Part shown: positions 320 to 53,728 of the stretch, piece by piece | Numbering within the stretch: position 1 is the stretch's first letter | Layout: the number at the start of each line of letters is the position of its first letter | Assembly: GCA_965153355.1 (NCBI GenBank) | Contig: OZ231126.1 | Coordinates: forward strand, 9,734,001 to 9,798,000 | Length of the DNA: 64,000 bases | Origin: Flaccisagitta enflata | Lineage: Eukaryota | Direction: 5' to 3' | Notes under the pieces: generated by a model | What the model was told of the DNA's origin: nothing | Databases searched by the model: none | Seen by the model: only the letters and a program-made list of their open reading frames with translations | Translations under genes and position numbers: made by a program

Positions 320-12226
<11,907 letters not shown>

Positions 12227-12591
12227 TTTTAGGTCGGAAAATCTTAGATGCAAATACTAACATTAGGTGACAAGTTTGAAAATGAATCGAATGAGGATGA
12301 AGCTTCCCGTTTTACAGAGCTAGTCTTTTAAATGAGCAACGTTAATTGGGAATAGGATTATGATCGATGCGACTCTACCTAAGAAAATAATATTGTCAAT
12401 GCTTAAACAAAATCGCATTTGCAGAAACTACAATCATTCATCCGCTACTACTAACATTGAAAGGCTGTGCATTTGCATTATCAAGAGCAAGAATATTGGT
12501 AAGTCTCAAATATTTCCAGTATATTCAGTATACGCAGATGCTTTCTCTTCGAAATTAATTACGCATCTGCTCTGTGCAATTTACGTGGCAG

Positions 12592-13586: not shown

Positions 13587-13952
13587 CTTGTTGGAATTAC
13601 TGAGACGGACAATAAAACTGACAAAGGTGGAAAACATCAAATCGGACAAGACCTACATAATGATAAACGATTGTTGTGGAAAGGTATGTCAGCAACAGTT
13701 GAGGTTTTTGAAAGGTTAATGAGTCAGGTCGATTCAACTCTATCTACGAAAAATGACAAATATGGACATACAGGAATCAAACTCGCTATTCCTGTTCGAA
13801 AACGAACTACTCGTCTTTTAAGCAACTAGACAACAAAAGACTGTGCATTACTTAACAGTTGAGTTTACGGCAAGAGATGGTTCCATTACATCGTACGCAG
13901 ACACAAATCTCTGATTTTCACAATAACCGCGTTTTCGCATTCTTCGACAAAG

Positions 13953-15733: not shown

Positions 15734-15954
15734 CTTCTCGATCTAAAAGGCGACAAAATCATTCAAAACATGGATCCAAACTACTGGAGACTTCTTATTG
15801 CATAGTCTTATCCGCGGAGAGATAAATTGATAGCGAAACACGATTGCTGAAATTGAGAGCGCGTAGTCCGTTGATGAACATGTAATGGAGGAAAAAGGGA
15901 AAAACTGATCGAATAAGTAATAGACAGTATCACGCATTTTGTATAACAATCCAC

Positions 15955-16908: not shown

Positions 16909-17158
16909 TTTTTGTGAGAGGTGACTTCTTATTTAGGTTAAGTAACCAAAGAATTATCAACTAGCGCCTAAAAGGAGAAAATAAAGATGACGATAAATAT
17001 CAAGTAGCAACAGCAGTAAAACAAATGTCACAGTGGAGGTAAGGCAGATCAGCAAGGGAGCGATTTCAACCGGGGAAACAACGAATCTTCACAGAACGGA
17101 CCATGACTACTAAATACCCTCATCAATCAGAGCCAACTTCGCGATATAGTTAAATCGA

Positions 17159-20100
17159 TTATGCCAAAAATTCCGTAGAAACAATCAAAAACGTGAAATC
17201 ACCAGTCCCAGCCTCCGCCACCGCTGATGCTTCCGCCTCCGCCATTGTCGATATTCCTCCATTCTTGACTCGCAAAATGCCAAATTCGAGCAGCGAAGGT
17301 CGACCTTTGGCAGTTTCAGCCACGAGGCGTTGTAAAGAGCGCTTCGTCGACTCAACGACCCGCTGGGCGCCTTGAAGGACGACTCCTGTTGGGTTGGAGA
17401 CGCTCGTCGACGAAGATTGAAAAGCGGAAGCGGCTCTTCCCCGTTGGCACTGACGAAACGATTGGAGGAGGAAAGAATTGTCGACTGAAACGTTGCGCAA
17501 TTCGCCGGTGGAGTCCTTTAAGGACAGGCTCAACGATGGGAAGAAACAAGGAGATAACATCGCGGAGGAGGAGCGAGGGAGGCTGCTCGCAGATTTGGGA
17601 TCGAGTAATGAACGAATCAACGGAGGAGGAGGAAGAGCGATATCTTCATGCGAGACAGCGGATCCCGCAGCGGAAGCCGCAGCGACGGAAGTGGCATTAC
17701 ATCCTTCCATCCACTGTGCACATTTGGGGCAAAATAAGGTGGCACCAACGACGTTTGGTAACGTCAATCTCAAATGCCTTAGAGTCGCCTTCGTCGCCAA
17801 TGTCAAACGTTTCTCCAAGATTGGATCGTTCGCCGCCGCTTGGTCGGTGGCGGCTGCTGCAGCGACTGCCGTGTCGGCGACCTCAAGGCCACTCATGCTC
17901 AGGTTCCCATCTTCGGCGTTAGCGACCAATTTTTGAGATTGAGTTCTGCCACCAATTGACGAGGAAGTCACGCACAAACTGCAAATTTAGTGAAGGTAAA
18001 GAGTGACTAGAATTTTGCTTTACAGTCAATCACTTTGGACGTGATGTTGAATTGTATTTCAAGTAATCGTGTATATATTTCATTTCACAAAGGCATATCT
18101 CTACACCTCTTCTTCCCTAAAATGTCAAAACTGACCTGTCCGCGGTGACGTCCTGATCTTCTGCGTTCAGGAACACCCGATTTTCGATGGCGGAATCACT
18201 GGCTTTCCATTTGACGCCGCCGCCGCCGCCAACGCCGTCGCTGATGCCATCATAAGTTGCATCAAGGCCGGCTTTGTGTTCATCGGTGGGATCGACGAGA
18301 GCGGTGGTAGTCAGCAGGACATGGTCAAGTGCAACGGAGTCGAGAGAATTCGCGTCGCGCTCCTGAGACTCGGTTATGACAGAAGAGGCGAAATGATGGG
18401 AAGAAAAGCGCAGTTCACAACTTTTGCATGCGAAAAACAAATCGCTCGGAAAAGGTTGTTGTTGTTGTTGCTGTGGTTGTTGTTGCGGTTGTTGTTGTTG
18501 TTGCTGTTCCTGCGATTGTTGTTCTTGTTCCGAGTGCTCGCCAAACTGTACCCCGGAAAGTGCGGCTTCGGTTTTAAAGAAAGCTCTGCCTAGTCTCGAG
18601 TGCATTCGAGGATCCGCGACTTCCGTCAGCCGGGAGAAAACCGCCGATGGGAGGAAAGACGGAGACAGGCGCGTGCAAGCTGGCAATGCGGGGGTGGCGG
18701 CGGTGGCGGGGGCGGCGGTGGCTGTGGGAGTGGTGGTATGAGTGGAACGCGGCTTTGGCGGTCGCGAGGCAACACGAGCGTCATTGGCCTTTGCAGAGGC
18801 TGAGGTTGTTGTTTGGACGCGAGAGTCAGTCGCTGTTTGGATGCGTGAATTAGTCGTTCGGATGCGATGTGGTTGATCATGGTTGGTTTTGGAAGTGCGT
18901 TCAGAGGGAATTGGTTCTGATGATGAAGGCGCCCTGATCGATATACAAATGAGTGAGTTTCCGCTTTCGGGAATGGACCAACCAGTTTAGTAATGGAAAA
19001 GTTTGAACTGTACGAACCAAACCTATGGTTACTGGCAATTTGAAACTGATGTTCAAGAACAGTAGAAGTTAGCAAAAACTAAAGATATTCATGTATCTGA
19101 AATCAAGTTTCGTTTATCCTATTTCATGATCGCAATAAAGACAGTACAGTATCAAAAATGCCATTAAATGGAGATAGAGATATGTTCAATAAATCACAGA
19201 ATGCTGCCTACCATCATCGTCAATTCCATCACAAAATGGTAACCATAACGAGTCATGGCACAATCAATCCATTCCCGAATGGACTTACTCATTGACGGGC
19301 TGCACATCCGTAGCGGAGTCAATTGCCGTAGCGGCAGCGGAGGCGTTGGTCCTTTCGACGTTATTGTCCACCCTTTTCTCATTTCCTGTGATGCGAGGGG
19401 CGTCTGTCGTCGTCGTTATCCCACCCTCGGAATTGGTCGTTTCCAGATTTGCTGTCTGTCCATTTTCTCTTTCCTCAGCCTCCTGGATTCTGCGCAAAAC
19501 GTCGTCATCGACGGCAGAGAAAGTGAAGGAGTGATCTCTGCGTCTACTGCCGCTGCTTACTGAATTAACGCTTGTTGCTGCCGCTTCTCCGCTTCCTCCC
19601 GCGACGCGAGACATGAGTTGCTGAGAGCCAATGGAGGAAAACGACGCGAGATCCGCCAAAGCGTTCAAGGAAGAGGAAGTTCCTACTCCAGAACCGACAG
19701 AACTGCCTTGACCATCTACTTCGGCTGTCGTCGTCGTCGTCGTCGTCGGACGCAGCACGCGAAGAGCATCTGCCAACCTCGTCTTCAGCGCCTCTCCGAT
19801 GGGATTTCCGTCTTGCAAAATGATCACTCCGCGTCCGAATCTCGTTCCCGATCTGAGATTGAGTTCGTGCATCGTCGGTCGGTGGTCGTTGGGATCGTAC
19901 ACGCGATGACGAGACACGTGTACGTTCTTGAGAAGCACGTGCGAACCGGGACGGACGAGGGTTGGCACGGAACGGGCGGAGGCATCGGCGTCATCGTTTA
20001 CACTATGGTTATCCTCATCGTTGTCATTATGCTGATCCTCGTCGGAGATTATCGAGTGCAAATGATTTTCCCAGACGACGACGTCGACGAGATGATATTT

Positions 20101-23100
20101 AACGGCGTCGTAAATCGGATGATGACGACGAATTGGACCTGTTCGGGAAGTTGGAATGCAGTCGAGGAGACGCTTGAATAAAAGATAGCCAGCAGAACAG
20201 GAGAGTACGATGCAAAGAAAGATTCCCAGACAACAAACAAGCGAAAGAAAGATAGAAAGAAAGAAAGACAAACGGCAAAGAAAGAAAGACAATGACAAAG
20301 AAAAAGACAAAAGAGACAAAGAAAGAAAGAAAGAAAGACAGAAAGAGAAAGAAAGGGAGAAAGAGAAAGGAAGACAGAAAGAGAAAGAAAGACAGAAAGA
20401 GAAAGAAGGAGAAAGAGAAAGAAAGGGAGAAAGACAAAGAAAGGGAGAAAGACAAAAAGAAATACAAAAAGAAAGACAGAAAGAAAGAAAAACAGAAAGA
20501 AAGAAAAACAGAAAGAAAGACAAAGAAAGAAAGACACAGACAAACAGAAAGAAAGAGAAGATGAAGTACCGAAATAGAAAAAGAAAAATAGAGAGACGAA
20601 ACAAAGCCAGTTTCTATCCAATTCAATCAACTGGCGTCGATGCTCTTTCAACCAGCAGCCCTTCACCTCGATTGGTTTCCGCCTCCAAGTTCATCTCCCA
20701 CATCGGCAGCGCGGCTTGAGTCCCGTCCCAAACACGCAACAGAGCGCAAAGACCCGGATTGACCACGCAAACATCGACCACTTGACAAGCAATGTCAACG
20801 AAAGCCGGAGATCGTAGACGGGAAATGGTCGTCAAGTAGGAGGGGGAGGAGGTTGAGGAAGGAGAAAGAGTCACAGAAGCGGATGTGGGATAAGAGGCGC
20901 CAACGACGGAAGGGAAGAAGCCGTAATCGCGCGCCCATTGACGCAAATCCTCCAAAGTTTCTCTCTCTTTGTCCGTCAAAGGAGAAAAGTTTGGCGTGGA
21001 GGAAAGCGGAATTGGCGGAGGCAACGTCAGTTCTGGCAGTTGGCCGTTGCTGCGCCACACCAAAGATCCGAAGCCGTGGCGCGAAGCGCAGCAACCCTGA
21101 AGACGGCCTTCTCTGTCCATTTGAATCTTGACTCTGAATGCGTGAGAGAGAAAAAGGACAAGCTGTACAAAATATATAAAACGACGATTTTAGAATTTCA
21201 CATGAGCTAGGTGAAAACGGAAAAAGTTGAAATCCCATTTTCTGAAACGTTCAAATCCTAACGTTGGAAACCCAATTTCATCTTTGATTAAAACCTGTGC
21301 ATCCTAATAATATCTCCTCTTTGTTCGATCCTGGGCAGCGTCTCTCTCGAAGCGGCGAAAGCGATACATCTCAGCTTTTCCTTTTCCACGTCGTTTGAAG
21401 ACACGTCGCAAATTCCGAAAGCCAAGGACCAATCACGACCGGAAGCCACCTTCTTGGCCGAATTGACGAACTCCACGACGCCGAAGAGGTTAACGGAAGT
21501 GTTGACGCTCAAATTGGCCACGCGCGTGTATGAAGACTCGACGACGCCGCCGGGACGAGGCGCCACCGTCGCAGTTGGAGGCGTTGGAGTGGTGTTGGAT
21601 GAAGCAGTACCGGAAGTGCGAGGGACAGGTGACTTTGACGTGGAGGCAGGACTGGGATGCCCGTTATTGGCGGAAGAAGAAGAAGGACCCACGTTAACAA
21701 CGTTGTTGGTCGGCGTAACAGGACGTGAATTAGAGCCGCCAGGAACTCGATGAAACGATTCGGCGGTGGGAAAAGCGGCGGGCCGAGACGTTGCGGCGTG
21801 GATAGATGGCGCGGTGGTGGTCGTCGTCGCGGTAGTGGTGGCAGTGACGGGATTGGCGGTCGTGGTGGTGGTCGTGGCGGCCGCCGCGGTGGTCATCGTT
21901 TCTTGCTCTTCAATGGGAGTAAGTGGCGGTCTTTTCGTCGTCTTCCTCATTCGCGGATGAAATGGCTCCGTTCTGGCAGATCGGCCATTGTTTTCTTCAT
22001 CACCGACTTCATCGACATCCGCGGCACTGGAGGCACTTACCGCGGCCACGTCGACGGCCTTAGGAATGGTTTCAGAGGCGGACTGTTGTTGTTGTTGTTG
22101 TTGCTTAGATGTCGGGGGATTGACGAGATTGAGTTGTTTGTAAGGCGGTTCTCGGTCTTCCTCATCGTCTTCCAAGATTAGATCGACCATTTTGCGTTTG
22201 CCACCTTTAGATCCTTTCCCTCCTCTGCCACCACTTTTACCACCATCGCTACCTCCTCCTCCTCCTCTTCCACCAGCATCCCCCGCCTGCGACGCTGGCA
22301 TTTGCGTCGACTGGGCCAGCGGATGTTGTTGCGACCATCCTCCTGCCTCGCAGACGCTGCCTATTTCGTCGTTGGCATCTTGGTTGTGTTCGACGACCCA
22401 GCCGCCGACGGCTTGAGTCCGCTCTTCGTCCGTCCGTTCGTATGTCTCACCGGGAACTCCCCAACCGAATTTGTCGGCGTCCAATCGAGCGCTTAAACTC
22501 TTCATCTGAATGAAACAAGAAGAATTGGGGTGAGTTCCTACGAATCTTAAGTTCCTTTTTCCAAGGGTAACTTTATGAGTGCATGATTTTTTTTCCCCGG
22601 AAACCTTCGATGGGACTTTAACTCGATCTTGGTTTTAGTGAACAGAAGGCAGTTGGGTAAAATGGTTCACCTCCTTTTTAGTTGCGGACACGCAACTCTA
22701 TAAGAAGCTTTGTCCGTCCGTCCGTCCGTCCATTGGTCCGTCATGGTGATTGAGTTGAAAAGTGCGAAAACGAGCGTTTTTTATACTTTTTGTGCATGTT
22801 TGAGTGTTGGAAGTGGGTTGGGGTGTGGATGGGGTTGAATGCCCCTGCCCACCCGTCCGCAATGATATATATACCCCGCGTCACTTGTTTAATTAGATAC
22901 TCTACAACCCTAGTAGAGCATCTTGTTTTTGATGAGGACAATTCATTCATTCATTATTTTTTTTTCTTTTCTTTTTTATGTAAAAATCTGAACAGTATCT
23001 GGGTCCGCGACGGAAGGGGGTTAAAGATCACCAATTCCGTAAGATCACTATGACCAAAAGATCGCTAACCCTGTAAGTTTGCCAAAACTATAAGTCTTTA

Positions 23101-28515: not shown

Positions 28516-29409
28516 TCATATCAAGAACCACTTATTCCTGGTTGAGACGGCTTCTCTGCGAACGAGTCGCTTTTTGTCGTCGAGACATTTGCCCAATTCT
28601 CTCACGACAGTTTGTTTGTGTGGCATTAAAAGTGAGGGCGCCAATCCTCCCACCGGCGACGCCGTTAAGCCGTTGGGTGTGGAAGAGTCAGGGGCAGACG
28701 ACGCTGAGGAGACCATGGAACCTAGACAGCGTAAAGCGTGGGAACGAGCCTCCATCGAGGGTGATGCCTGATAGGAGTTAAATATAAAGCTTCTGTGATG
28801 ACCAATTATCACTTAATATCTGGCAAATGAAATTAATTCGCACGGTCAATCATTTGAAATCATTCAGAATTCATCCATTGATTCATTCATCCATTAATTC
28901 ATTCATTCATTCATTCATTCATTCATTCATTCATTCATTCATTCATTCATTCATTCATTCATGTCAATCCTTCCGCTAACATCTAACGGATGTAAGCGCA
29001 GCGGTCAAAACTACCGAGTTTCGATCATCGATAAATGAGCTCAGCTTTGATCTATGAATCCGACAAATTGTGTTAAGTCGATCAAACGACCGATCAATGA
29101 GGAAAGAGGGAAAGTGAATCGACAGAATATCCCTCACTCCAGTTTGCTAATAGGCGACTAACGAAGGTCGATCGGCGATTACCTTTGCGATTTGGACGAG
29201 CTTGGGAATGACGGCATCAGTATGAGAAGCCAAAGCCAGTGGAGACTCTTTCAGCAACAACTCCAAGCATGAGATCACAGACTTGTGTAACACAGCATCG
29301 TCGCCTGATAGGGACTGTAATGGGAAGTGAAATGGCAGTTATGTGAGAGACAGGAAGAAAGACAGACAAAGAAAGGCAGAAAGAAAGACAGAAAGAGAGA
29401 AAGAAAGAG

Positions 29410-29440
<31 letters not shown>

Positions 29441-29501
29441 GAGAAAGAGAGAAAGAGAGAAAGAGAGAAAGAAAGAAAGAAAGAAAGAGAAAAAGAAAGG
29501 C

Positions 29502-29583
<82 letters not shown>

Positions 29584-32500
29584 GCAAAAGAAAGAAAGAA
29601 CAAGGCCAAGTAGGCCAATAAGGTGCTACGTGTGGATCGTCTAACGAATGCGTTACCCAACCAACCAACCAACGGACACAGCCAGTTATAGAGGTGCTTT
29701 GTCGCACCTAAAAAGAAAGGCAGAAAAAAAGAAAGACAAATACACGAAGAAAGGAAAAGAGAGATAGAGAGAAAGAAAGACTGAGAAAGACTAGGAAGAA
29801 AAGGCTGAGAAAGATCGAAAGAAACTTAAAACTGTAATGAGATTGGAAAATGGAAATGACAAGTTCGGTTCAAAAAGGTCTCACCTTGACCAGAACCGGT
29901 AAAATACTCGGCAATTCCGATAGCAAAGCCTGTTGCGGCAAATAAGGAAGCATGGACGCGAGGGCATTGAGACGATGTTGCTCGCTCCTCTTCAAATCCT
30001 CCTCCTTCATTCTTCCTCTTCCTCCTCCATCTTCCTCATCATCGCCGTCTCTCTTCTTGGCGATCAAAGAAGGCACGGTTTGCAGGAAGAATCTTTGCTT
30101 GTACATTTTGCGAGAGATGGCGTGTTGGCGCACTGTGAAGACGTCTACGGCTTCAGCGAGAATCGTCACGAACCCGACGCGACTAATCATCGTTGACACG
30201 TCTTCGAGTTCGTTGGGTGTTGTCGTTGTTATTGATTTTGTTGTTTCTGTATTTGTTGGTGTTGCCGTTGTTAATTCTGATACTGTTGTTGTTGTTGTTG
30301 GCGTACTTTGCGCTGACGCTCCCTTTTTCTCCGATCTGCTTAACCACTGAATAAGCTGAGTAGTGAATTGTTTGGAGGCTCGATGACTACGAATGACGAG
30401 AGCCTTCGTGATCCAAATCCAAAGTCGAACTCCGTTTATGCAAATGAGATCATCATTATTATCATCATTGTCATCAGTTTCCATCGCCGAGTCGTCGGCT
30501 TCGTTCCCGGCGTCATTTCCGTTCTGACTCGGCCTCCTCGGCGCCGCGATGACGACGTCGACGATCTTGTCCAACGCCGCAGTCAAAGCGGCGTCGTTGT
30601 CAATTTTGTTGACGACGGCGGCGCTCAATTTGGCGGCGTCGATGGCGAGAGCGGCGTCTGTCTGCGGCGCCGCTGCCAGGCGGAAGACGGCGTCCAGGAA
30701 TTCGGAATCGGAAACGTGAATTTGATTTCCGCGCGGAAGCGAAGCGCCGATCGCCAGCAGAAGCGGGAACAAATCCCGACGGAAAATGTCACCAGGTGCT
30801 TCACCCAACATATGATGGCCCAATAAACCTGAGAACGAAAAATCGTCTTATTTTTGTTGTCATTTTTCTTCTTTCAAGTTAGCTATCATTAGTTGTCAGT
30901 GAGTAGGCAAATTTGGAGTAAAAAGGCTTTGAGCATTCAGAGACAGATTCGGTTTTTTACGTGGCAACATCTTAAGTTTTCCGTGCAATTTTTTCCAATA
31001 ATTCTGTTGTTTCACTGAGTATGCTGCAACTTTACCGATGCGAGATCAATACCATTGGTCATTTAACCGGTTTTCAATTAATTTAGGGAGTATAAAGCAT
31101 GCATAACACTTTAATTTTGCCACATTTCCGCTGCATAGCACAGTAAAGAACGATTTGTCAAATTTGGCGCTGTTCTGCACCACGACTTAACACTTACCAT
31201 GTGCCGTTAAAAACTCCTTTTTGTTAAAAACTGTCTTGTAAAGTTAATAAAAAGACCTTTTTAACGCTTTAAAACATCTAACAGAATGTTAAAAAGGTTT
31301 TTAACACACTTTTTAACAAAATGTTAAAAACCTTTTTAACTGGGTGTTAAAAACCTTTTTAACAAGTTAAAAACCTTTTTAACACGTTGTTAAAACAGTT
31401 TTTAACATGCTGTTAAAAACCTTTTTAACAAGCTGGTAAAAACCTTTTTAACAAGTTAAGAACCTTTTTAACAGGTTGGTAAAACAATTTTCAACACGCT
31501 GTTAAAAATCTGTTTAACAAGCTGCTAAAAACCTTTTTAACAAGCTATAAAAAAACTTTTTAACATGACTGTTGAATAAAAACAGTTTTAAACCTCTCAA
31601 AACGCCTTTAAAAACCTGTTTAACCACCATTTTTTACAGGGACCCTAGCTTTTTAACAGTTTTTAACAAGTCCCTGAAATAAAAGAGGGTCCCCGCTGTT
31701 AAAAACTGTTAAAAACCCGTTAAAAAATTTTTTAACGTTTGCCCCTCTGATTAAAGTTAAATGCGTGTTTACCTTTTGTTTCATTCCATTCGGCTATAGC
31801 CTCGTCTTGGTTCATGATTTCGACGACTTTCCTGATAAGCGCCGCTGCCCGTCTCACCACTTCCGGTCGGCGCAACCAAACAGTCGACTCCCAATCGTCG
31901 ATGAAAATAGACTTCACGCGCGGCAAAACCTGAACAGATGGTTCAGAGTGGGCAAAGCTAAGATGATATTTCGTTGTTTATCTTGGCGTCATATAGTTGT
32001 ATCCATTTCGGATACCGGTTCAGAAAGGAGTGTCTTGCGAGAGGGCAGGGGCAGCTATGAAATAGCAGGGGGCAGGGGCAATCATGTGGAGGGAGGGGGC
32101 AATCATGTGGAGGGCGTGGACAGTAATGTGGGTCAGCAGGGGCAGCAATGCTCGGCGACCCCGATTTCGGCCGACTTCGCGTCATCCCAAATGACACCCT
32201 CTTGTAGTCGTTCACCAGGCGACAATGAAAACCAACTTACTTTGTCCTTCAAGACTCGTTGATTGGCCGGATTGGAATCGATTCCTTTTTCGGCCAAACT
32301 GTCGAGACATTCCAAGAGGATGAGGCCGAGACAGGCGCCAGAGGAGGAAGAAGAGGAAGAGGAAACGGAAGAGGAAACGGAGGAGGAGGCGCCCTGTGTC
32401 TCGATGGCGGTCAAAAGTTTATCGGTGGCCAAAGCGAATCCTTGCGGCGTCACGCAACAACGACTCAACAACGAAGACAAATGAACAATGTTCACTGAAG

Positions 32501-35500
32501 GAGGACAACCTAGAGGGAGGAGGAAGAAAAAACCCAATAGTTAAGAATGGAAGAAGCCGAAATGAAGCTTAGAATGACAATATTTAGAGAGGGCAAGGAA
32601 GGAACATTTCGACTGTCCAATGAATTCACAGAGAAAGAGAAACGGCCATTCAGCTCAATTGTACAATGTTCACTAGTGCACTTACTTCTATCGCCGTCCA
32701 CTTGCATCGATCCGCCATCGAGTCCATTTCGCGACACCACCTCCGTCAAATGGTTCATCAGCAGCGGTAAAACCTGTCGCGATAAAGTTAAAACAACAAC
32801 GAACAATGTAACTGAACGGTGCTTTTTTACTGGACTGAAGTTGAGACTTGCATGAAATTTTCCCAAATCAAGTTATGAAAGAGGGACAATATCAATACTC
32901 AGCCCCTAACGTATCAGGATGACAGGCTTCGGAGCTCTCTATGATGTTAAATCCGGACCTATCAGAACTACCCTTCAACTTTCTTTAAAAACAATACCGC
33001 ACTGAGAATTATCATAGGATCTTAGCACATGGTAGCCTGACGCGCAATGAAGTAGTAAATCAACAGCATTAACATATTTACCTGAGCGTCGAAAATGCTT
33101 TCATCACTCATACCGCCTCCATCACCACCGCCACCGGCATCGATTTTTCCACTGCCACCGCCTACGCCACCAACGGGAATGAACGCCAATTTCCTGATGG
33201 CATCCGAGGCTCGACTTCGCACTTGCGGACTGGCGTGGAATACCGCGAGAGACACGATGGGCAAAACCGTTTTGGCGCGTGAATGTTCATCGCCGACGGC
33301 ATCGGGAAGACGCAGCCAACACTCGGCCAAGGATAAACCCAACAAACAAAGACGCTCGTCGCATTCGCCGGATAACGAAGCAGCCAGGATCTGATAAATG
33401 GAGTATACGATGCAAAAGATCGTGGTCTAAAGCATATGTCAAGTAGTCATAGATTTAGACAAAGATATACATCATGCAATAAAGTACACAATCCATTGAC
33501 AAATCCACGTACAGTTGAATCCCGCTCAAACGGACCCGCTTTTAACGATATTCCGCCCATAATAAATACCGATTCTTAGTCTTTGTTTATTTTCTTTATT
33601 GGCTGTAACAGAATTCTGTTAATAGCAAATAAAATTTTTTGATCCCCTGAAATCCGTTGGAGCGGGATTTAACTGTAACTGTATGTACTTTAACTGTATG
33701 TCGGGAGTCATGACCTAAACACGCACTCGCAAATCCTGGCATCTAAACATTTCCCACCTCCGCCACTGGTTCTCTAATGTCAACTAGTTCTCCCGACTCC
33801 TCTTGAAATCCTTGAAAAGTCGCCGTCAACTTGGACATCTTCGCCGTCGTGTCTTTGTTAGAGTCGCTTTTGTTGGCATCGGAAGGAGAAGGGAGAGATC
33901 GAGGAGGAACTTCCTCGATCGTGATGTCCGACAAAGCCAATGAAGGAACAGATGGCTCAGGTCCGTCTTTTAATGACATAAGTGAGATGGAGCCAGGAGG
34001 CGGAAAAAAGGAATCAGGTTAAGTTAGTTTAATGATAGGTGTAGGTTAAGGAAAGAATCCATGAATCCATGAATGCGTTTCGACGGACTGTTGCACCGGT
34101 AATAGGGGGAGGTGAGGTAAAATGGGTCTCCAACTTTATTCAGCCCTTGCATTAGTTTCAGGAAAATTTCTGTTTTAATCCAAAACTAGACACACTAAAA
34201 TATTCTTATCTTCCAAACTTGACTCATCTTATCCCAGGCGACCCACTTACCCCACACCCTTCATCTCAAAACATCTCAAAACTCAAGGTCGAATTGCATC
34301 TCACATCCACTTTATTTCCTCATTCTTACCACGAAGGGGGAGACTATTCTGATTGTCCACCAAAGTGGGTAGCGGGCTTACGTGATCGCACAACACGGTT
34401 AGGAAATTGGCGACGACTTCCACGATGGGACATCGAGAGTTCAATTGAGGACTCATCATAAATTGACGGTGAAGACTTGGAAAACAAGTTTGAATCACGC
34501 GAACAGTCACGAATAGCGAGCCTGTGGAATACGGAGGAGGGCGTGTAGTTGGGACTTGTGAGGTTATGGACTTAAAGATGGAAGTGTCTACGGAAATATT
34601 GAAGAGAAAGGCAATTTAGGGCCGAAATTACCTTTACAGAAGGCGATTAAGAATCTGGAGGCGGAATACATGAGACGATGCTGAGGTTCGTTCAAGTTCA
34701 CTCCGCACTCTTTCATGATCAAGGCAGTGAAGTGAGGAAGCAACTCGGGGAAGTCGTTACTAGATCGATCGTCTGGATGACAAAATTGGTAGGATGAAAT
34801 GGAGGAGGGAGGAAAGGAGGTAGAGGGAAATGAAGCGGGAGAAGAAAAGGAGAGAGATCAGAGAAGCGCGGGAAGAAGAAGAAGAAGAAGAAAGAGAGGA
34901 GAGAAAAGTGGTGAAAGTATGATAGGTGGAGGAAGTGGGAGAAGCGGAGGAGGAAGAGGCGGGGAGAGGTGAGGAGGAAGAAGTGGAGCAAGAAAAGGAG
35001 AAAGCTCAAGAGGAGTGATTATGGAAGAAACAGAGAAGAGAGCAAAAGAGGAATAAGAAAATCATGAAGGAGAACACAAGATTAAATGAGGAGATAACAG
35101 AAAACATAAGAGATATCAATGAAAAGAGAGAGTAAAACTACGGCCAAAACAGCAACTGTCAAATAAAGTTGGGTGGACATAAACAAATCACAAAAACAGC
35201 CCAACTCTTTAAAAACAACTTTTCTACCGGCGATGGTTCTAGCGAGCGCTGTAGCGGCTTCCTCGACGGCCTTCTGGACGGCATCGGAGGTGGTGGCGAA
35301 CATTTCTCTGCGCATGTCGTTGACGAGCAGCTCGAGATGTTCGCGAAGGCCTTTTGCGCCGAAAACGGCGGCGCCAGCGCTTAAGGTTTTTAACGCGTCA
35401 ACCTTGGCGCTGGTGGAAACAGAATGAGATTGGAGGTGAAGTTGTAAAGATGATAAAAGAGAGGTACAACGTAACCTACACAGCTTCCATGATGAAGGAT

Positions 35501-37054
35501 AACCAAATTGAAAGGCGTACAGACCTGGAAACGGAAATTCAGACAAACTCACCTATGAAGGTTCACATAAAGACACACACCTGGCTAAATCCGAGGATAA
35601 CTTTTCAATGAGCAGCGGTAGACAATATTGAGCGAACATCGGCGAAGCGATCATGGCTTTCTTCAACCCATCCACGAGTTTGTCTCGTGTGATTCCAAAA
35701 GGATCATTCTTAGGAGGATTGAAGTCGATCGGGAAATAACAAGCCACAACTTCGAAGGCGTCCTCGGCGAAGGTCGCCAAGGGGAATGTCTGGGAGATCT
35801 TCTCCGATAATTGGAAACATATCACCAAGTTACGGGGGTCCTGAGGCAGGGAAGATAAAAGAGAAAGGAAATGCGGTGATTCAAGCCCCTTGCGAAATAA
35901 TGTAAGGAATCTGTCGTCTGTGATGGTTCATACATCACATGATCAATGCGAGTCCCTAGACGCCCAAGAAGATGGCCTCAATTTTGATGTGGCCCAGTTA
36001 TGTTCTTTTGCAAAGCGGCTAATTCTGTTCCGTGCATTTGTTTTCCCTCTTTCCTTCTCATGTTCACCTTTTCCCCGTCCATGATTTGAATGAATCCATG
36101 TACGAAATTGGGTCCAAGTTGAGTTTGGATGGCAGGCAGATGGTTGGCCAATAAATTACGGAAAATGACATAAACGGAAAATCGATCAATTTGGGCCAAA
36201 GATTGAACGTCCAAATGCTCGAAGATGGACCGAAGTAAAGACAAACAATCATCCACCGACAGCCTGGTTACAGTGAGGAATAAGAGGAAGGGATTGAAAA
36301 TCCAAAAGGGCAATTTGTATTAGGCATGACGGTAAACTCATGGTATGTAAATGCGTGTCAAAATTGATCACCATTGCATCGCAACAACCCCGAAATCAGG
36401 GGAAGACGCGATATTTCTTCGGTAAAGTAGTGCGACGGACAAACATGCGAACGGTTTATTAGTTAGGCCAATTCTAATCAATCCATCAAGAGTCTGATTG
36501 TGTACAACCCTTACCGCGTGGACGCCGACAGCGCTCTCAATCCAAGCAAAGCGGCAGGCGCGACTAAATGGTGATCTTGAATTCGGGCCAAAAGGAATTG
36601 GAACAAATGCTTGATTTCTCCGTCCACGAGAGTCGCGTCGATCGCCAGTCGACCCAAAGTCAAGGACAACAGACGAACCGACTTGGAACGCACCAAAGGA
36701 TCCTTCGTGGAAATCGTAGGACCCAACGCCTCGATGAACTCCAAAAGCTTGATCTTCCCTGATTGGGAAAGGAGGAAGCTGCTATGTATGAAAAGCTGCA
36801 TGCACCTAAAACAATCGCAGCTGTGGCATCTTCAATGCAAATTTTCAATTCTCTATGAACGTACCCGAGGCGATGGGTGAGACGATTTCATCAACTGTCA
36901 CTTCGATGGTATTGTTTTTAACATCATTCGCGTTTGTCGTTGCCGCCACCGTGGGAGTGACGGCGGCGGCTGCAGCGGTCGTGAAAGAAGCGTCTCTTTG
37001 ATATTTCTCAATGTCAGCCGCCAACTTCGTCCGTAACTCTTCTTCATCCTCCAT
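28516..37054 (-). CDS. MMS19: MMS19 cytosolic Fe-S assembly component (HEAT repeats), multi-exon
   Basis: KLLEFIEALG..., VQSLAQIDRFSVY, GFIQIMDGEK|DPRNL, EDAFEVVACYFPIDF..PKNDPFGITR, LPLLIEKLSS, MYKQRFF, and C-terminal PHKQTVVRELGKCLDDKKRLVRREAVSTRNKWFLI followed by stop. Confidence 0.95.
31204..31749. mobile_element. MITE-like remnant of GTTAAAAA/TTTTTAAC repeats in an MMS19 intron
   Basis: Same design as the 14841 element; one end reads ...AACGTTTGCCCCTCTG, the other end is unclear. Confidence 0.5.
33512..33675. mobile_element. Tc1/mariner (pogo/Tigger-like) MITE
   Basis: TA|CAGTTGAATCCCGCTCAAACGGA ... TCCGTTGGAGCGGGATTTAACTG|TA. Confidence 0.8.
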
Positions 37055-45690: not shown

Positions 45691-48600
45691 AAAATAGGGA
45701 AGATTTGTAAAGAAAAAGAGAACCAGGCAGTTGTTAAGAGCAAAGATGACATGAAACAAAGATCTAGGTAACACCCATACTTGGTTGACTTTTTTCTATA
45801 CATTTTGTTTGACTTATTCATCAGTAAAGACACAATTGCTGGTTGACTTACTTGGTTGACTTTTTGTTTGACTTTCCTGTATATATACTAGTTGACTGTC
45901 ACACAATCTGGTTGCAACTTGCTTATAATTCTCTATAGTAGAATCTTTTTTCAGGCGATCAAATGACAAGAAAAATTTTCATCCTTCATTACTGTTTGAA
46001 ATTCGTCATAACCTTTCCTAGAAACCACCTTTAGTCATTCCTCGGGATATTGGCGCTTAGTGAAGTGTAGCACGCCGGCAAATGCAAGTTTTCACTTAAT
46101 TATGCAAATCAGCATGTCGCTTACAAACTGATTAGATTGGTCCGTTAAATGGATTACTCTAGAGAGAAAAGATCACTTTACTGACCAACAGCTCCAAAAG
46201 AGAAAAATGAAACTGCTTCAATTTCGCAAACAAAAACTCGATTTTGTGACTGGAAAAAATAACACCAATGCTTTTCTTGAAATCATGACTTCTGGATGAT
46301 CTTTCAACAGCAAAGCAGGAATCAATTCCGTGACTTGGTCAATGTAACAAAGCCAGGGCACCACTACCCGCGACAACTTAATCACAACATCAGGATAAGT
46401 TGCTTTTCATAGTTACAATTGTTATCATAAATTAAAAATAATTTTTGAACGCTTAACCAAGTTTTTACTGGACCGATAACTTTTTTAGACAAAATGAATT
46501 TTAAACCTCTTTTCCTACTGCAACTGGGGTTTCCTGCATAAGAATTTTGGTGAGAACATCAGTTGTTTAAAACCGGTATCATTTTACTGAGATGTGTTAG
46601 TGCACAAGATGGGTTAGTGCACGAGAGTGCGCGGCCGCTTAAAGCAGAATTTTCTTGTGTAGGGACACACTAAAAGCCTTTTAAGATGGGACCTCGCGTT
46701 CTCGTGAAAGAGTCCGTCCGTCCATCCATATTTCTGTCCTTCCTTTCCTTCTATCTGTTCATCCATATGAAGAACTATATACAGGCCTGTAAATAAATAT
46801 CTTTATTTTTTGTGAAATATAATTCTATCCACTGATCTAGGTCATCTTTGCCCCCATCTTGCTGTATTATAAGTGTAAAACCTTTTGTTCAAAATGCGTA
46901 GCTAAGCATTTCTAATGAAATAGCTGCTCTGAAAAACATGGGGGGGGGGGAAATATACAAACCTACACACATGAGCAAATACACACACTCACTCATTATC
47001 ATACTAAAAAATCCCAGGTTTACAACTTTTTCCATTTGGCGATAGGCACCTTTATTTTTAAATGGATGAATAAATGTAATGAGTGGTTGAATGAAATGGA
47101 TGGACGGACAAACCTATGGAGGGCGATGGCAACCCTGACAAGAAATGCAGGATCACAATATCATTCCTGACAGGGGGGGAGGGGCGTCCAACCCCCATCC
47201 ACACCTCAACTACTAAATGTCATGTTGATTTATACGGCAAGACCTTAGTCTCTTAAGCACGTTTCAACAAAATGAGATAATGATTGCCCAATTTATTCTT
47301 CCTTTTCAATCAATCTTGACCAGTTCTGACCCTTTTTTTTTGGCCAGTTTGGCCAGTGCACATGGTCAAGGAACAAATTGTCAAAATGCACCAGCTGTAG
47401 TACCTAAACCCCCTGAGTCACCATACCAAATTTCAGGAGTCTAGGCGTTCAAAGGTAAAATTTGTTTCAACATTTTGACGATGAAGATGAAAACAATGAC
47501 AACAATGACACCAACGCCGACGATGGGTTTCAATGACATAAGTTGTCAATTAGTGTTTCCCTTGTCAATAGCTTGCAATACTGGAATGACTTTATAATAG
47601 TCAAAATTCCATATGAATGTCCCCGGCAACTTTCACTTTGTTTCCCCTATTGTCTTAAAGGGTCGGAAATAGGGTCATCTTCCCACATGACCAGATATGA
47701 TGGTATCAAGTGCGTTTGTTTTTTTCTTTTATTTTTTTTGAAATAGTAGAAAACATGCCAACGATGGTAAAACAAAAGCCCAATCCAACATCAATTGCTT
47801 CACAATGGAGTATGACATGATGAGCACATATGGGACAAAATAGAACATGGCAACTTAAAGCGTCAAAAATAGGGCTAGTCTGAAAAGGGGATAAGGAAAT
47901 TGTTCCGCCAATGTGTCAATCATATCAGCTGTCATCTTTGATCTACTAGGCCTATCTCATGGGGCCAGTACAGAAAAAACACTTTCAATCACTGAATAAA
48001 CCCCAGAAAAAATATTTTGGACTCACACGAAGAATCAATGGAATAAAAGCAATTTTGTTGAAACTTAAACTTTAGCTCCTGAGCGAGATTTCTAGCGTGA
48101 AAATTAAGACAGCCTTAATTTTTTTGCATTTATCTCAAATGAGCCACTTTAGAGATAATACCAGGTTTCCCATGGTATATTGAAAGTAAAACCGGGCAAT
48201 AAAATTAGCATTTCTCTCTGCTACATATTTGTTACACAATTTATAACCAAAACTGATTGTTGTTTTGAACAGAAAACACATGAAAATTGCAGTTATGGGG
48301 GGAAATTCAACTTAGTTGCGACCAAAGGTACAGCTTCTGGGTAGAAAATTGCTTAGTCAGTGTGATGCAGATCGATATGTTGTTCAGATTACCTGACTTT
48401 GTAGAGACATTTGTAGAGACATTTGTAGAGACATTTGTAGAGACATTTGTAGAGACATTTGTAGAGACATTTGTAGAGACATTTGTAGAGACATTTGTAG
48501 AGACATTTGTAGAGACATTTGTAGAGACATTTGTAGAGACATTTGTAGAGACATTTGTGGAGACATTTGTAGAGACATTTGTAGAGACATTTGTAGAGAC

Positions 48601-49464
48601 ATTTGTAGAGACATTTGTAGAGACATATGTAGAGACATTTGTGGAGACATTTGTAGAGACATTTGTAGAGACATGTGTAGAGACATGTGTAGAGACATGT
48701 GTAGAGATATTTGTAGAGATATTTGTAGAGATATTTGTAGAGATATTTGTAGAGATATTTGTAGAGATATTTGTAGAGATATTTGTAGAGATATTTGTAG
48801 AGATATTTGTAGAGATATTTGTAGAGATATTTGTAGAGATATTTGTAGAGATATTTGTAGAGATATTTGTAGAGATATTTGTAGAGATATTTGTAGATAT
48901 TTGTAGAGATATTTGTAGAGATTTGTAGAGATATTTGTGTATTTTATTTTGTAGAGATATTTGTAGAGATATTTGTAGAGATATTTGTAGAGATATTTGT
49001 AGAGATATTTGTAGAGATATTTGTAGAGATATATGTAGAGATATTTGTAGAGATATATATATCTACAAATATCTCTACAAATATCTCTACAAATATCTCT
49101 ACAAATATCTCTACAAATATCTCTACAAATATCTCTACAAATATCTCTACAAATATCTCTACAAATATCTCTACAAATTGTTAGTCGCGTCGACGCATAT
49201 CGTAAGACTTCGTTGCTTAGTTACCCGAGTGTAAACAAATAGACAATAGAAACATCGACTACCGAAGACACGACGAAGCGACGGAGAAGATATCAACTGG
49301 ACTTAGAAACTAAATTGCGTCTATACGATCGTGTAACCATCTTGACCGATTAAACCCGTTCATAAAGTTATCACGCCGTATTGAAGACGTAGGGCCGTAG
49401 GCATTAGGGCGATACTAGGGCATTAGGGGACCTGAAGAAGTCTGCGGGGACTCTAAACCTGACA

Positions 49465-49475
49465 TTACACGATCG
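49465..49475 (+). promoter_or_regulatory. Putative self-priming primer-binding site TTACACGATCG
   Basis: Immediately follows the 5' LTR, lacks the TGG of tRNA-type sites, and is the exact reverse complement of LTR positions 49326-49336 (CGATCGTGTAA). Confidence 0.65.
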
Positions 49476-50729
49476 CTATACAGCACGCGATTGGACGCTC
49501 AAGTGAAAAGGTCACTTGAGTGAGATTTTCTCTCTGGGGATAGGAAACCCAGAGGGGCGAACTAGAATTAACCTAATGCCTTTAGTCGCTCTTTTGCTAA
49601 CGGTCAATCGACTCGGAACACGGAAATTCTTCGAACGGAACCAAGAATCGATTTCTTCTCTGGAGCGACGTCAGAATAGAACCAACAAGGACTTATTGGC
49701 GCGATTCTCATTTGAAAAAGAGCGCGCTCCGACCATCGAACATTTGACGTCGATAGGAAATAAAGGATCATCGACGCCGAGTATTAACGGAACCGTTGCG
49801 TGCTTCGCATAGCAAAAGGTCCTGGGATTAGCCACTCCACATTGGGTAAAGAGGGCGAAAAGAAATAATCAACTTTTGCCATGTGAAGCACCCAAACGGA
49901 ACCGCGAATTGCTTAATCTTTAAGTACACTGAGGGGGGTGGGGTTTTCGGAACCAAGAATCGATTTCTTCTCTGGAGCGACGTCAGAATAGAACAACAAT
50001 ACTTATTGATTTTTTGAAAAAGAGCGCGCTTCGAACAAGACGGATAGGAAATAAAATCATGACGCCGACCCCCCTACCGCGCAATTTACTCCTAAGAAAC
50101 GCGCGCTACGAACTCGACCATCTCGACGTTGGTAACATAAGAACATTATTGCACTTTAGATCATCGTTTACCGTCATTAAGGATAAACCTTACTTGACAA
50201 TTGATTGAACCAAATTACGCGAAGTACTCGACGTTGTTTCATGTCCAAGCTTGAGTGATACTCAAGTGTATTTGATATTAATTTTTGCTGATTGCTCAGG
50301 GAAAACCTGAGCCGTCTTTTCTCTTAATTTGCTATCACCGAAAAATCACCGATCGCTCACCGCTCATTATCGCGCGATCAGAATATGAGGAACACTACCG
50401 AATAAAGAAAAAAGAAAATGCATTTCTGATTTGATTCACTGAATTGTGAACACAGAAGATGTCTCCCGTTTCCTCTGACTTGAACACACGAAGTAAAAAG
50501 CGTAACTAGTTGACAATTGTTGAACAGTACACGAAGAAAGGGAACTTTCTTTTGAGAACCACGCCGCATGCGTTACGAAAATTGACACTTGGGGATGTCT
50601 CAAGTGCTGAGAGATTCCGGAATGATTTACTTTGCGCATGGATCACATCGCGCGATTTTCGTTTTTGAGACATGAAAGAGGTTTCTCTTGTTTCTGAGTT
50701 ACTACTCAAGTAGATTTTTTCCCACGAAA

Positions 50730-52877
50730 ATGAATTCGGGACACAACCCCTCAGTCTCATTTACCTATGAACAGGCCTTACTTCACAATGAACAGTTAGC
50801 ACAAACATTGCTAAAGTATGTAGAGACTTCATTGGAAGGGCTCGAATCAAATTACTTCAAAGCCAAAAGACTCGATGATACACAGGCAAAAGTATCAACA
50901 AATAATTGCCGAAACATTTTGGAATCGAATTGTGCATATTTGAACCAGTTTCACTCTGAAGGGGTTTTTAGTGCTCAGACAAGCCAAAATATACAAAATG
51001 CAATCTCCACTATTCAAAGTGCCCTGTCCATTTACTCTGCCTTTCCGGAGTCAGAGACTATCCCTGACACTCGAAAAACTGAAGTTGAACTTGAACCTGT
51101 TTACGCTCAATGTGAACGAGACTCTGCCCAGAGAGATTCTCGGGCTAGAACATCAACTCCCCTCCCAACTAGTACCAATACATCAAACGAAACCCCACAT
51201 CATAGCCGCTCAGATCCGTGTGACAGTGGCAAAGCCCGAAGGAAACTTCGAGCCAAAAGCAAAACTTCTTGCCGCGCCATGGTCGGTACCCCCAAGGCTA
51301 ATGAAGCCAGACGTGAACAAATTAGAAACTTAGAGGCAAAGAGACTTGAATGGCGGCAAAAGGCTGAATTGGAAAGGCATGAATTTGAAAGCCGGTTTAA
51401 GGCTGATGACATTAATGAGGGTAGGGAAACCTACCCGAATGAAAAAAATCCTGAAGAAATTGTTGATGAATCTGGACCAAGAACCCCATTGACTATTGAA
51501 CCCCTTGCCCCTCTTTTGTCTTTAACCCAAGAGGGAAATGACCTCTTGTCAACAAACAAGGATGACCATGAACTGAAAACCGACTTCTTTGATGAGCCAG
51601 ATGCATCACTGACCTCGAATGAACCAGAATCTAATCCTGCCAATTTGAGCATCAAATCAAGCCAACTTCCCTTGACACTTGAACCTTCTTCTGTAGACCC
51701 TGACTCAGACCAGACGCTGACACCATCCCTTGATGTCAAGAATCCACCTCTTTATGTTGGGAGTCCACCCCTGGATGTCAAGAATCCACCCCTTGATGTA
51801 AAAAATCCACCCCTTGATGTTGAGAATCCACCTCTTGATGTCGATTATCCACCCCTTGATGTTGAGAACTCACCCCTTGGTGTTGAGAATCCACCCCCTT
51901 CTGTTGTTGGAGGAACTGATCGGACCCCCTTGGAAAATTCTCAAGTTGTGAATGGTCACACATTCACCTACAAAGAAAGATCATCTGAGTGTGATGCACA
52001 TTTGGACAAACTTGACACGCCAGAATCTGAGACGGTGGGGGTAGGAACTCACCAGATCTTGACAAAACCTTTGAAGCTTCCAGATCCCGACGTTGCGTGC
52101 AGAACCATGGGGAAAACCCATGGCGCAACCCTTCCAAGCAGTATTTTTCTGCTGAAACATGACATGGCCACTCTGACCCAAGGGTTAGAGCACCCTGAGG
52201 ACACTCGCAAGAGAGAGCCACCTGACTCTGGATCTGAACAAATCTTTGAAGGTCCACATCCTTCCGTTGATCATACATTGGAGGACACTGGAAGACCACC
52301 ACCTTTGAAATGGAAATCCATTTCAGGCATGAATACCAAAGATGGAACTCGTCACCACCGATGTGTGGAACTCGTCACCACAGATGCGCAGAACTCGTTG
52401 CCACAGATGCGCGGAACTCGTTGCCACGGACGCACGGAACTCATCGCCACGGACGCACGGAACTCATTGCCACGGACGCCCGGAACTCATCGCCACGGAC
52501 GCCCGGAACTCATCGCCAGGGACGCCGCGGATTTGCCAGACTCGGATGCCGCGGATTTGCCAGACTCGGACGCTGCGGATTCGCCAGACTCGGACGCTGC
52601 GGATTTGCCAGACTCGGACGCTGCGGATTTGCCAGACTTGCCAGACTCGGCTGCGGATTTGCCAGACTCGGACGCTGCGGATTCGCCGGACTTGGACGCT
52701 GCGGCTTTGCAAGACTTGGACGCTCCGGATTTGCAAAACTCGGACGCTGCAGATTCGCCGGACTCGGACCCTGCAGATTCGCCGGACTTGGACCCTGCAG
52801 ATTCGCCGGACTTGGACCCTGCAGATTCGCCGGACTCGGATGCTGCGGAATCGCCGGACTCGGACCCTGCGGATTAG
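50730..52877 (+). CDS. Unknown protein of the LTR element, about 715 aa: helical/coiled-coil N-terminus, then PPLDV(K/E)N and DSDAAD(L/S)P repeats
   Basis: Uninterrupted ORF (first ATG 50730) ending about 70 nt before the 3' LTR; no CCHC knuckle, protease or RT motif recognised. Confidence 0.65.
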   Translation: MNSGHNPSVSFTYEQALLHNEQLAQTLLKYVETSLEGLESNYFKAKRLDDTQAKVSTNNCRNILESNCAYLNQFHSEGVFSAQTSQNIQNAISTIQSALSIYSAFPESETIPDTRKTEVELEPVYAQCERDSAQRDSRARTSTPLPTSTNTSNETPHHSRSDPCDSGKARRKLRAKSKTSCRAMVGTPKANEARREQIRNLEAKRLEWRQKAELERHEFESRFKADDINEGRETYPNEKNPEEIVDESGPRTPLTIEPLAPLLSLTQEGNDLLSTNKDDHELKTDFFDEPDASLTSNEPESNPANLSIKSSQLPLTLEPSSVDPDSDQTLTPSLDVKNPPLYVGSPPLDVKNPPLDVKNPPLDVENPPLDVDYPPLDVENSPLGVENPPPSVVGGTDRTPLENSQVVNGHTFTYKERSSECDAHLDKLDTPESETVGVGTHQILTKPLKLPDPDVACRTMGKTHGATLPSSIFLLKHDMATLTQGLEHPEDTRKREPPDSGSEQIFEGPHPSVDHTLEDTGRPPPLKWKSISGMNTKDGTRHHRCVELVTTDAQNSLPQMRGTRCHGRTELIATDARNSLPRTPGTHRHGRPELIARDAADLPDSDAADLPDSDAADSPDSDAADLPDSDAADLPDLPDSAADLPDSDAADSPDLDAAALQDLDAPDLQNSDAADSPDSDPADSPDLDPADSPDLDPADSPDSDAAESPDSDPAD

Positions 52878-53728
52878 CCGGACTCAGACACCTGAACCAG
52901 GGAGTCGACGCTTGGAAGTTTGGACCAGACTACGCCTGTTCGGTGGGGGTGTTAGTCGCGTCGACGCATATCGTAAGACTTCGTTGCTTAGTTACCCGAG
53001 TGTAAACAAATAGACAATAGAAACATCGACTACCGAAGACACGACGAAGCAACAGAGAAGATATCAACTAGACTCAGAAACTAAATTGCGTCTATACGAT
53101 CGTGTAACCATCTTGACCGATTAAACCCGTTCATAAAGTTATCACGCCGTATTGAAGACGTAGGGCCGTAGGCATTAGGGCGATACTAGGGCATTAGGGG
53201 ACCTGAAGAAGTCTGCGGGGACTCTAAACCTGACACAAATATCTCTACAAATATCTCTACAAATATCTCTACAAATATCTCTACAAATATCTCTACAAAT
53301 ATCTCTACAAATATCTCTACAAATATCTCTACAAATATCTCTACAAATATCTCTACAAATATCTCTACAAATATCTCTACAAATATCTCTACAAATATCT
53401 CTACAAATATCTCTACAAATATCTCTACAAATATCTCTACAAATATCTCTACAAATACCTCTACAAATATCTCTACAAATATCTCTACAAATATCTCTAC
53501 AAATACCTCTACAAATACCTCTACAAATATCTCTACAAATATCTCTACAAATATCTCAACAGATATCTCTACAAATTTCAATACAAATATCTCTACAAAT
53601 ATCTCTACAAATTTCAATACAAATATCTCTACAAATATCCCTACAAATATCTCTACAAACCCAGGTAATCTGTGAAACAGATCCGTCCATATCGGACTGA
53701 CTGATCAACTTTCTAACCCAATGCAGTA

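Follow-up and report, generated by a model that had tools for sequence, protein, structure and literature searches.

The closest described relatives, in terms of priming, of the element analysed here are the self-primed Ty3/gypsy chromoviruses, such as Tf1 and Tf2 of Schizosaccharomyces pombe. As far as the passages cited here go, the Tf1 transcript pairs through its initial 11 bases with a site just past the long terminal repeat (LTR), and the RNA is cut between bases 11 and 12 (PMC7175516, PMC5341516). Priming of Tf1 is described as requiring a three-duplex "pretzel" structure around this site, and the Tf1/sushi group as comprising elements from fungi, vertebrates and non-seed plants (cited passages of PMC10085805). 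According to an excerpt of PMC6317226, self-priming is also predicted for plant Tcn1-clade chromoviruses and for TAR-lineage Ty1/copia elements, which shows the trait to extend beyond a single clade. Here we describe an LTR retrotransposon contained in a 64,000-nucleotide stretch of Flaccisagitta enflata DNA (assembly GCA_965153355.1, contig OZ231126.1, positions 9,734,001 to 9,798,000; "the window" hereafter, with positions counted from its first letter). The element, revealed by a direct-repeat search of the 64-kb window, measures 4057 bp and occupies positions 49179-53235 on the plus strand. We read it as a young copy of an abundant LTR family devoid of pol, in which minus-strand synthesis is most likely primed in a tRNA-free, Tf1-like manner, a view that we hold with slightly more confidence than doubt.

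The evidence that carries this reading lies at the junction between the 5′ LTR and the leader. The first 11 nt past the 5′ LTR (TTACACGATCG) are the exact reverse complement of a segment situated within that LTR (CGATCGTGTAA), as had been pointed out in a first-pass annotation of the stretch and as can be read directly in the sequence (coordinates are collected in Table 1). Across the 64-kb window the 11-mer occurs three times, in both LTRs on the plus strand and at the post-LTR site on the minus strand. The rule employed to predict self-priming, in the form given in the cited part of PMC6317226, calls for a complement of at least 10 bp in the 5′ LTR and for a site 0-5 bp after the LTR; in this element the complement is 11/11 and its offset from the LTR is 0. 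Length and position are also those of Tf1, whose use of its own first 11 nt, invoked in the first-pass annotation, agrees with the corresponding passage of PMC7175516. A site of the tRNA-3′-end type is absent from the junction in either orientation, as claimed beforehand: the first TGG lies at 49492-49494, 27 nt past the 5′ LTR, and on the opposite strand the bases next to the LTR are a stretch of pyrimidines complementary to the purine tract. No tRNA gene was found in the 64-kb window. Beyond the 11-mer, a 1-nt bulge (C 49476) is followed by TATA at 49477-49480, which pairs with TATA at 49322-49325. These additional pairs had likewise been announced, and they do exist, but they lie upstream of the proposed transcript start at 49326 and therefore outside a primer of the Tf1 type.

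The structure around the site is that of a genuine, young LTR element. The two LTRs are bounded by TG..CA as terminal direct repeats should be, and they differ at four positions (49280, 49283, 49299 and 49304), none of which falls in the 11-mer. The same five nucleotides, CAAAT, flank both ends of the element as a target-site duplication, and the register of the 12-bp satellite that surrounds it picks up again beyond the element. A purine tract (GGTGGGGG), as expected of an LTR retrotransposon, stands directly 5′ of the 3′ LTR. Taken together, the near-identical LTRs, the TG..CA termini, the CAAAT duplication and the purine tract indicate a recent integrase-mediated insertion. The ATTAAA noticed in the first-pass annotation is present at 49349-49354. 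No second LTR pair was detected in the 64-kb window. The search against Rfam gave no match at the gathering threshold across the window, and inside the element just noise with E>3, so that no hammerhead (retrozyme) or tRNA-like part was found in the element. As regards the LTR differences themselves, all four fall within 25 nt (49280-49304), and three of them are G in the 5′ LTR and A in the 3′ LTR; position 49280 is A in every contig of X1, a DNA sequencing run introduced below. This could reflect a mutation cluster or, alternatively, a patch of another subfamily in the 5′ LTR.

By analogy with Tf1, the following sequence of events can be proposed. The transcript would begin within the 5′ LTR, either at 49326 or a little upstream, and would terminate past the ATTAAA at 49349 in the 3′ LTR. 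The 5′ end of the RNA would then fold back, pairing 49326-49336 with 49465-49475, and a reverse transcriptase provided in trans would, through its RNase H activity, cut after A49336. The freed 3′-OH, paired with the first base past the LTR, could be extended through U5 and R, the two LTR regions that follow U3. Finally, plus-strand synthesis starting from the purine tract at 52942-52949 would copy the still attached primer back into the site. We infer that such a copy-back would keep exactly 11 nt perfect and leave the flanking pairing imperfect, and that 11 perfect pairs bounded by a bulge would in turn point to a transcript start at 49326. The copy-back idea is supported by Tf1 itself, in which roughly half the cDNA bears a single-stranded DNA copy of the primer-binding site, according to the passage cited from PMC11042837.

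Several results weigh against Tf1-like self-priming, and they are set out in what follows together with the explanations that would replace it. One of them is the background of inverted matches. The first-pass annotation had put the probability of a fortuitous match at 276/4^11, about 1 in 15000, which proved too optimistic. When the LTR was shuffled 5000 times with its dinucleotide composition preserved, six shuffles gave an exact complement of at least 11 nt at 0-5 nt past the LTR, and 21 a duplex as stable as the observed one (-26.3 kcal/mol). Moreover, 600 of 63,684 window positions (0.94%) find an exact complement of 11 nt within the 286 nt before them; this high background is due to the abundance of palindromic satellites and long inverted repeats in this genome. 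The 600 positions reduce to 36 clusters that mostly correspond to such structures, and only nine are isolated matches of the present kind. The match therefore exceeds chance with a p-value of roughly 1e-4 to 1e-2, not 7e-5. Pure chance would leave the priming site without particular significance, as would be the case, for instance, if the family owed its spread to recombination or segmental duplication instead of reverse transcription. That a single family in a single window is concerned, that the match was found post hoc and that the genome is rich in inverted repeats all speak for such a coincidence. It is opposed by the shuffle p-value of about 0.001-0.004, by a junction that is identical in the main family contig, and by the intact CAAAT duplication, the close identity of the LTRs, the purine tract and the high depth of copies, which argue for recent integrase-mediated insertion; we regard chance as improbable, and as the least probable of the explanations considered.

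The same background figure, up to 0.94% in the window for an 11-nt inverted match, can be invoked in favor of a host RNA as primer, be it an internal tRNA fragment or a tRNA half, such as copia-type elements use, or a small RNA of another sort, in which case the LTR match would be a coincidence or a side effect. Such primers have precedents: half-tRNA primers that do without TGG exist, as mentioned in an excerpt of PMC6317226, and bivalve non-autonomous LTR elements are described, in the cited passages of PMC6934838, as having no canonical site and as showing similarity to central parts of tRNAs. Nevertheless, the match found here is 11/11, adjoins the LTR exactly and involves an 11-mer that is found nowhere else in the 64 kb, and Rfam returned nothing for the element. 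In addition, the strand of a host primer would have to end in ...GTGTAA, which by reasoning resembles neither a CCA end, nor a T-loop, nor an anticodon loop of the usual kind, where U33 and a purine at position 37 are expected. Priming by a host RNA appears to us unlikely, if the foremost of the alternatives.

Folding predictions bear on the central duplex in both directions. In RNAduplex and RNAfold predictions the pairing is imperfectly prolonged, so that 49313-49336 is opposed to 49465-49492; past the TATA pairs, an 8-bp helix is formed by AAUUGCGU with ACGCGAUU, including one G-U pair. In the RNA 49300-49520 this long duplex is the backbone of the predicted fold, whose energy has a z-score of -3.51 and was equalled by none of 200 shuffles, and in the ensemble the 11 pairs have a mean probability of 0.86-0.95 when the 5′ end is placed anywhere from 49300 to 49326. 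If the LTR is left out, a local 7-bp hairpin can form at the site. Counting against Tf1-like priming, an RNA that starts at 49326 keeps the 11-bp helix and has an unremarkable total energy (z-score -1.58; 17 of 200 shuffles as good), and the extension pairs with bases upstream of 49326, which are lacking at the 5′ end of a Tf1-type RNA. Of the three duplexes of the Tf1 pretzel, the central one alone is clear: the predicted U5 stem-loop is weak, being equalled in 179 of 3000 shuffles, and no duplex was found between the post-site sequence and LTR bases downstream of the primer, 3000 of 3000 shuffles doing as well. The tRNA-independent, self-primed nature proposed in the first-pass annotation retains the sequence rule and the Tf1-like length and position in its favor; the third duplex, which was not found, and the weak U5 hairpin speak against a complete equivalence with Tf1.

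These features raise the alternative that the duplex formed by LTR (49313-49336) and leader (49465-49492) acts as a structural signal in place of providing the primer. It might mask the site, or the leader might pair with the 3′ LTR at its U3/R junction for circularisation or dimerisation of the RNA, to the benefit of strand transfer or packaging, with priming accomplished by other means or by the 3′ copy. In agreement with this, the pairing does not stop at the 11-mer but takes in bases that would be outside a Tf1-type 5′ end and inside the 3′ LTR copy of the RNA; the RNA containing those bases reaches the z-score of -3.51, against -1.58 for the RNA that starts at 49326; the ATTAAA at 49349 could be a TATA-like box that places the start downstream of the 11-mer; and a local hairpin can compete at the site. 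A variant of a minor family form (49488 C>T) also preserves a G-U pair with 49317. However, the extension taken alone (-10.2 kcal/mol) is marginal, as it is matched in 55 of 5000 shuffles and by 6.7% of the natural 20-mers of the element, another variant (49479 T>C) breaks the pair with 49323 and is accompanied by no partner change among the variant rows listed, and mere masking of the site would leave the primer unexplained. A purely structural role is in our judgement unlikely as well, by a shade more so than a host-RNA primer. Just past the extended duplex the leader contains a strong hairpin of its own (49496-49522), which could be a packaging or dimerisation signal; it was also picked up by a scan for bacterial promoters and terminators, whose output is otherwise of no relevance here.

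To place these predictions in the context of the family, we turned to the public sequencing runs that contain the stretch. The 23 runs listed derive from nine studies and comprise DNA of the organism as well as marine metagenomes and metatranscriptomes. Four of them were mapped, namely X22 (raw poly(A) RNA), X1 (DNA), X3 (marine DNA) and X8 (a metatranscriptome), all but X22 in the form of contigs, which cannot reveal transcript starts; the mapping yielded neither RNA reads nor transcript starts or ends nor loose poly(A) ends. Contigs of X1 add up to a depth of about 1,600-2,200 across the leader and of 4,000-20,000 across the LTR, which means that the family is multi-copy. One X1 contig, with a depth of 1955.7, is identical to the window over 49441-49646 and so spans the junction between the LTR and the primer site, and two minor subfamily contigs with depths of 116.6 and 108 cross it with 21 and 11 differences, respectively. 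The site at 49465-49475 is accordingly the one used by a successful family, whatever the primer.

Of nine listed variant places in the LTR, eight lie upstream of 49306 (Fisher p 0.014-0.037). The passage cited from PMC3601003 states that R-U5 is more conserved than U3, and, since R-U5 is usually the better conserved part, this distribution fits a U3/R border at about 49306-49326. The position of the 11-mer, 13 nt upstream of the only ATTAAA, is plausible for such a border. Also to be set against self-priming, neither 11-mer contains a variant, and hence covariation is not seen, among the 40 of 56 variant rows listed. In run X22, none of 12,162,974 raw RNA records matched, a result that speaks neither way on start or expression, and the X8 metatranscriptome contigs fall on parts of the LTR and on 50292-50467, with none in 49485-49790. 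In a separate observation, several X3 DNA and X8 RNA contigs from one marine sample match the LTR only up to, or only from, 49331, inside the 11-mer, and diverge in sequence beyond that point; this break could correspond to LTR variants with a different upstream half or to an assembly branch point at the palindrome CGATCG.

Table 1. Positions of the features of the element and of its insertion site within the 64-kb window.
Feature	Position	Strand	Remarks
Target-site duplication, left copy CAAAT	49174-49178	.	Within the 12-bp satellite
5′ LTR	49179-49464	+	286 bp, TGTTAG...TGACA; 282/286 identical to 52950-53235
LTR arm of the imperfect extension	49313-49325	+	Partner 49476-49492
Candidate self-primer CGATCGTGTAA	49326-49336	+	Predicted first 11 nt of the RNA if Tf1-like
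ATTAAA, candidate poly(A) signal	49349-49354	+	Judged by sequence only; implied R of about 40-50 nt; alternatively a TATA-like box
Predicted U5 stem-loop, U5-IR-like	49416-49461	+	Ends 3 nt before the putative primer-binding site; -18.4 kcal/mol
Putative primer-binding site TTACACGATCG	49465-49475	+	Adjoins the LTR; exact reverse complement of 49326-49336
Leader arm of the imperfect extension	49476-49492	+	Alternative local 7-bp hairpin, 49470-49476 with 49487-49493
Strong hairpin, 11 pairs, 5-nt loop	49496-49522	+	Leader, just past the extended duplex
258-bp segment without counterpart in the main family form	49818-50075	+	Joint 49817->50076 at depth 1569.8
Sole long open reading frame, 715 amino acids	50730-52877	+	Acidic, proline-rich; 21-, 23- and 24-nt tandem repeats; no known family
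Purine tract GGTGGGGG	52942-52949	+	Adjoins the 3′ LTR; plus-strand primer site on the strength of its letters
3′ LTR	52950-53235	+	286 bp, from the direct-repeat search
Target-site duplication, right copy CAAAT	53236-53240	.	Identical 5 nt at both element ends

The element would have to rely on enzymes made elsewhere, as its coding capacity is limited to one open reading frame (ORF). The first-pass annotation described it as a pol-less LTR element, and this is borne out by the six-frame scan, in which no reverse transcriptase, integrase or zinc-knuckle motif (YxDD, HHCC, CCHC) was found; a single protease-like match to a D[TS]G-type pattern (LDSGS) lies on the minus strand. The ORF shows no Pfam family, with one sub-threshold match only, no match in PHROGs, none in a separate word-index search, and a single match with E 0.13 among PDB sequences. 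Since neither a pol motif nor a Pfam family for the ORF was found, the element, which encodes no recognisable protease, reverse transcriptase/RNase H or integrase set of an autonomous retrotransposon, is considered non-autonomous.

A phmmer search with the ORF against 1.84 billion representatives returned 15 matches, with no gag-pol fusion and no long relatives among them. Ten are short fragments of 103-254 amino acids with 51-76% identity, and the seven of these that were looked up are all located on contigs of about 1 kb from ENA; the other five are longer proteins, whose similarity is confined to the proline-rich repeats. Four relatives of the ORF start with MNS or MNP and a fifth (P0005) carries MNSG internally, and several share an MNSG start. 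Fragments at 51-76% identity that share the MNSG start show that the ORF belongs to a real, diverging protein family. The fragments, which sit on short metagenome contigs, also differ in internal deletions, and the family looks to be fast-evolving, modular and carried by the element.

The remaining point that weighs on the other side is the partner: neither an autonomous element nor pol was found in the window or in the metagenome, viral and prokaryote collections. A 19-nt pattern from the LTR end retrieved five loci from the metagenome collection, all of them chance matches of 20-29 nt; protein and DNA-pattern searches of the viral contig collection gave no match; and the protein search of prokaryote-genome contigs yielded one spurious, low-complexity match of 35% in a bacterial metagenome-assembled genome. 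The partner that would supply reverse transcriptase in trans is thus postulated from the non-autonomous character of the copy.

With respect to other parts of the element, the 258-bp segment that the main family form lacks (Table 1) contains a duplicate of 49636-49732 and the 3′ end of a very abundant unrelated repeat (49827-49895). The summed depth of this repeat in run X1 is about 8e5 at 49842-49892, and it is present as a single copy in the window. Its other copies have a conserved upstream flank and diverse downstream flanks, as for a 5′-truncated insertion of the short or long interspersed element (SINE/LINE) type.

The insertion site of the element is one arm of a satellite array that is palindromic. 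The 12-bp satellite TTTGTAGAGATA is represented by 55 units at 48398-49178 and 53235-53659; near 49057 the units switch to the reverse complement, and the array goes on past the element. Further away, the window carries host genes on the minus strand (12592-22634 and 29217-35552) with unusually long uninterrupted exons. They include two ORFs with BTB domains, a POT1-like telomere-binding gene (ORFs of 439 and 405 amino acids) and MMS19; further Pfam scans gave BTB, TFIIA-like and MMS19_N only. The best relative found for MMS19 is just 35% identical, which suggests that proteins from the lineage of the host are sparse in the library searched.

What would follow if the self-priming prediction were correct? 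Self-priming amounts to independence from host tRNAs, and also from silencing based on tRNA fragments. To our knowledge, it has been demonstrated so far solely in fission yeast, and elsewhere it is predicted in a few clades. The present locus would then be a clear case in a marine eukaryote, and on a non-autonomous element, which would widen the host range; no description of a self-primed LTR element from an invertebrate came up in the open-access literature searched. Passengers of this kind would have to copy the primer and the site of their partner as a pair, and this would provide a sequence signature with which the partner could be found. A more far-reaching view, which we put forward as a long shot, is that a marine planktonic eukaryote, possibly an animal, harbors a tRNA-independent LTR lineage beyond the published hosts, active enough to spread a pol-less passenger with an orphan ORF to high copy, and that its priming geometry is unlike that of Tf1, with an LTR-leader duplex of 24-28 nt straddling the U3/R border and a primer or cyclisation partner that may be contributed by the RNA's 3′ LTR copy instead of its capped 5′ end. 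In its present status, the proposal is an in-silico prediction on a single copy, and represents a lead for the repeat annotation of this genome and not a new mechanism.

Several known systems can be compared with this element. Fungal GalEa copia elements resemble it in the lack of a tRNA site and in having a structure right past the 5′ LTR, which here would be the local 7-bp hairpin (PMC5445492, cited passages). The GalEa site is described in the same passages as nine nucleotides that form a palindrome together with the final base of the LTR and recur as an inverse copy 12-41 bp downstream; the LTR contains no complement of them. By contrast, in our element the complement lies in the LTR and the first 9 nt form no such palindrome: A-TTACACGAT is not palindromic and an inverse copy is absent from 49474-49530. 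A Conserved Hairpin Site of the GalEa type was rejected because both the defining palindrome and the nearby inverse copy are missing.

As a non-autonomous copy, the element is comparable to LARD, TRIM and gag-only elements, with which it shares LTRs, the target-site duplication, the purine tract, the absence of pol and dependence on a partner; TRIMs of bivalves are also described as being without a canonical tRNA site (PMC6934838, cited part). It differs from these bivalve TRIMs in its length of 4 kb, in its orphan ORF of 715 amino acids and in its clear LTR-complementary site, of which the cited part of PMC6934838 makes no mention for TRIMs. The plant Tcn1 and TAR self-primers were called, according to the excerpt of PMC6317226, by the same computational rule that this element passes; they are autonomous elements classified by their proteins, whereas this one is pol-less.

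The likeness is greatest to Tf1, Tf2, Tj1, Tosmo and Tcry. As in these self-primed Ty3/gypsy chromoviruses, the site adjoins the 5′ LTR and consists of an 11-nt complement of the element's own LTR, and features held in common further include the lack of a tRNA site, an LTR ending in CA and a purine tract before the 3′ LTR (cited passages of PMC7175516, PMC4600332, PMC10085805 and PMC5341516). Unlike elements of the Tf1 type, the one studied here has no gag-pol, and so offers no reverse transcriptase, RNase H or chromodomain to compare. With regard to Tf1 in particular, and within what the cited passages describe, the differences are that only the central duplex of the pretzel is clear, that additional pairing occurs upstream of the putative primer, and that the host is a marine eukaryote and not a fungus.

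Membership of the Tf1/sushi group rests on pol phylogeny and on the chromodomain, neither of which this element possesses. What it does have in common with sushi-ichi and other vertebrate members of that group is the same kind of complementarity between the LTR and the sequence past it, the feature from which Butler et al. are said to have predicted self-priming of these vertebrate elements in 2001.

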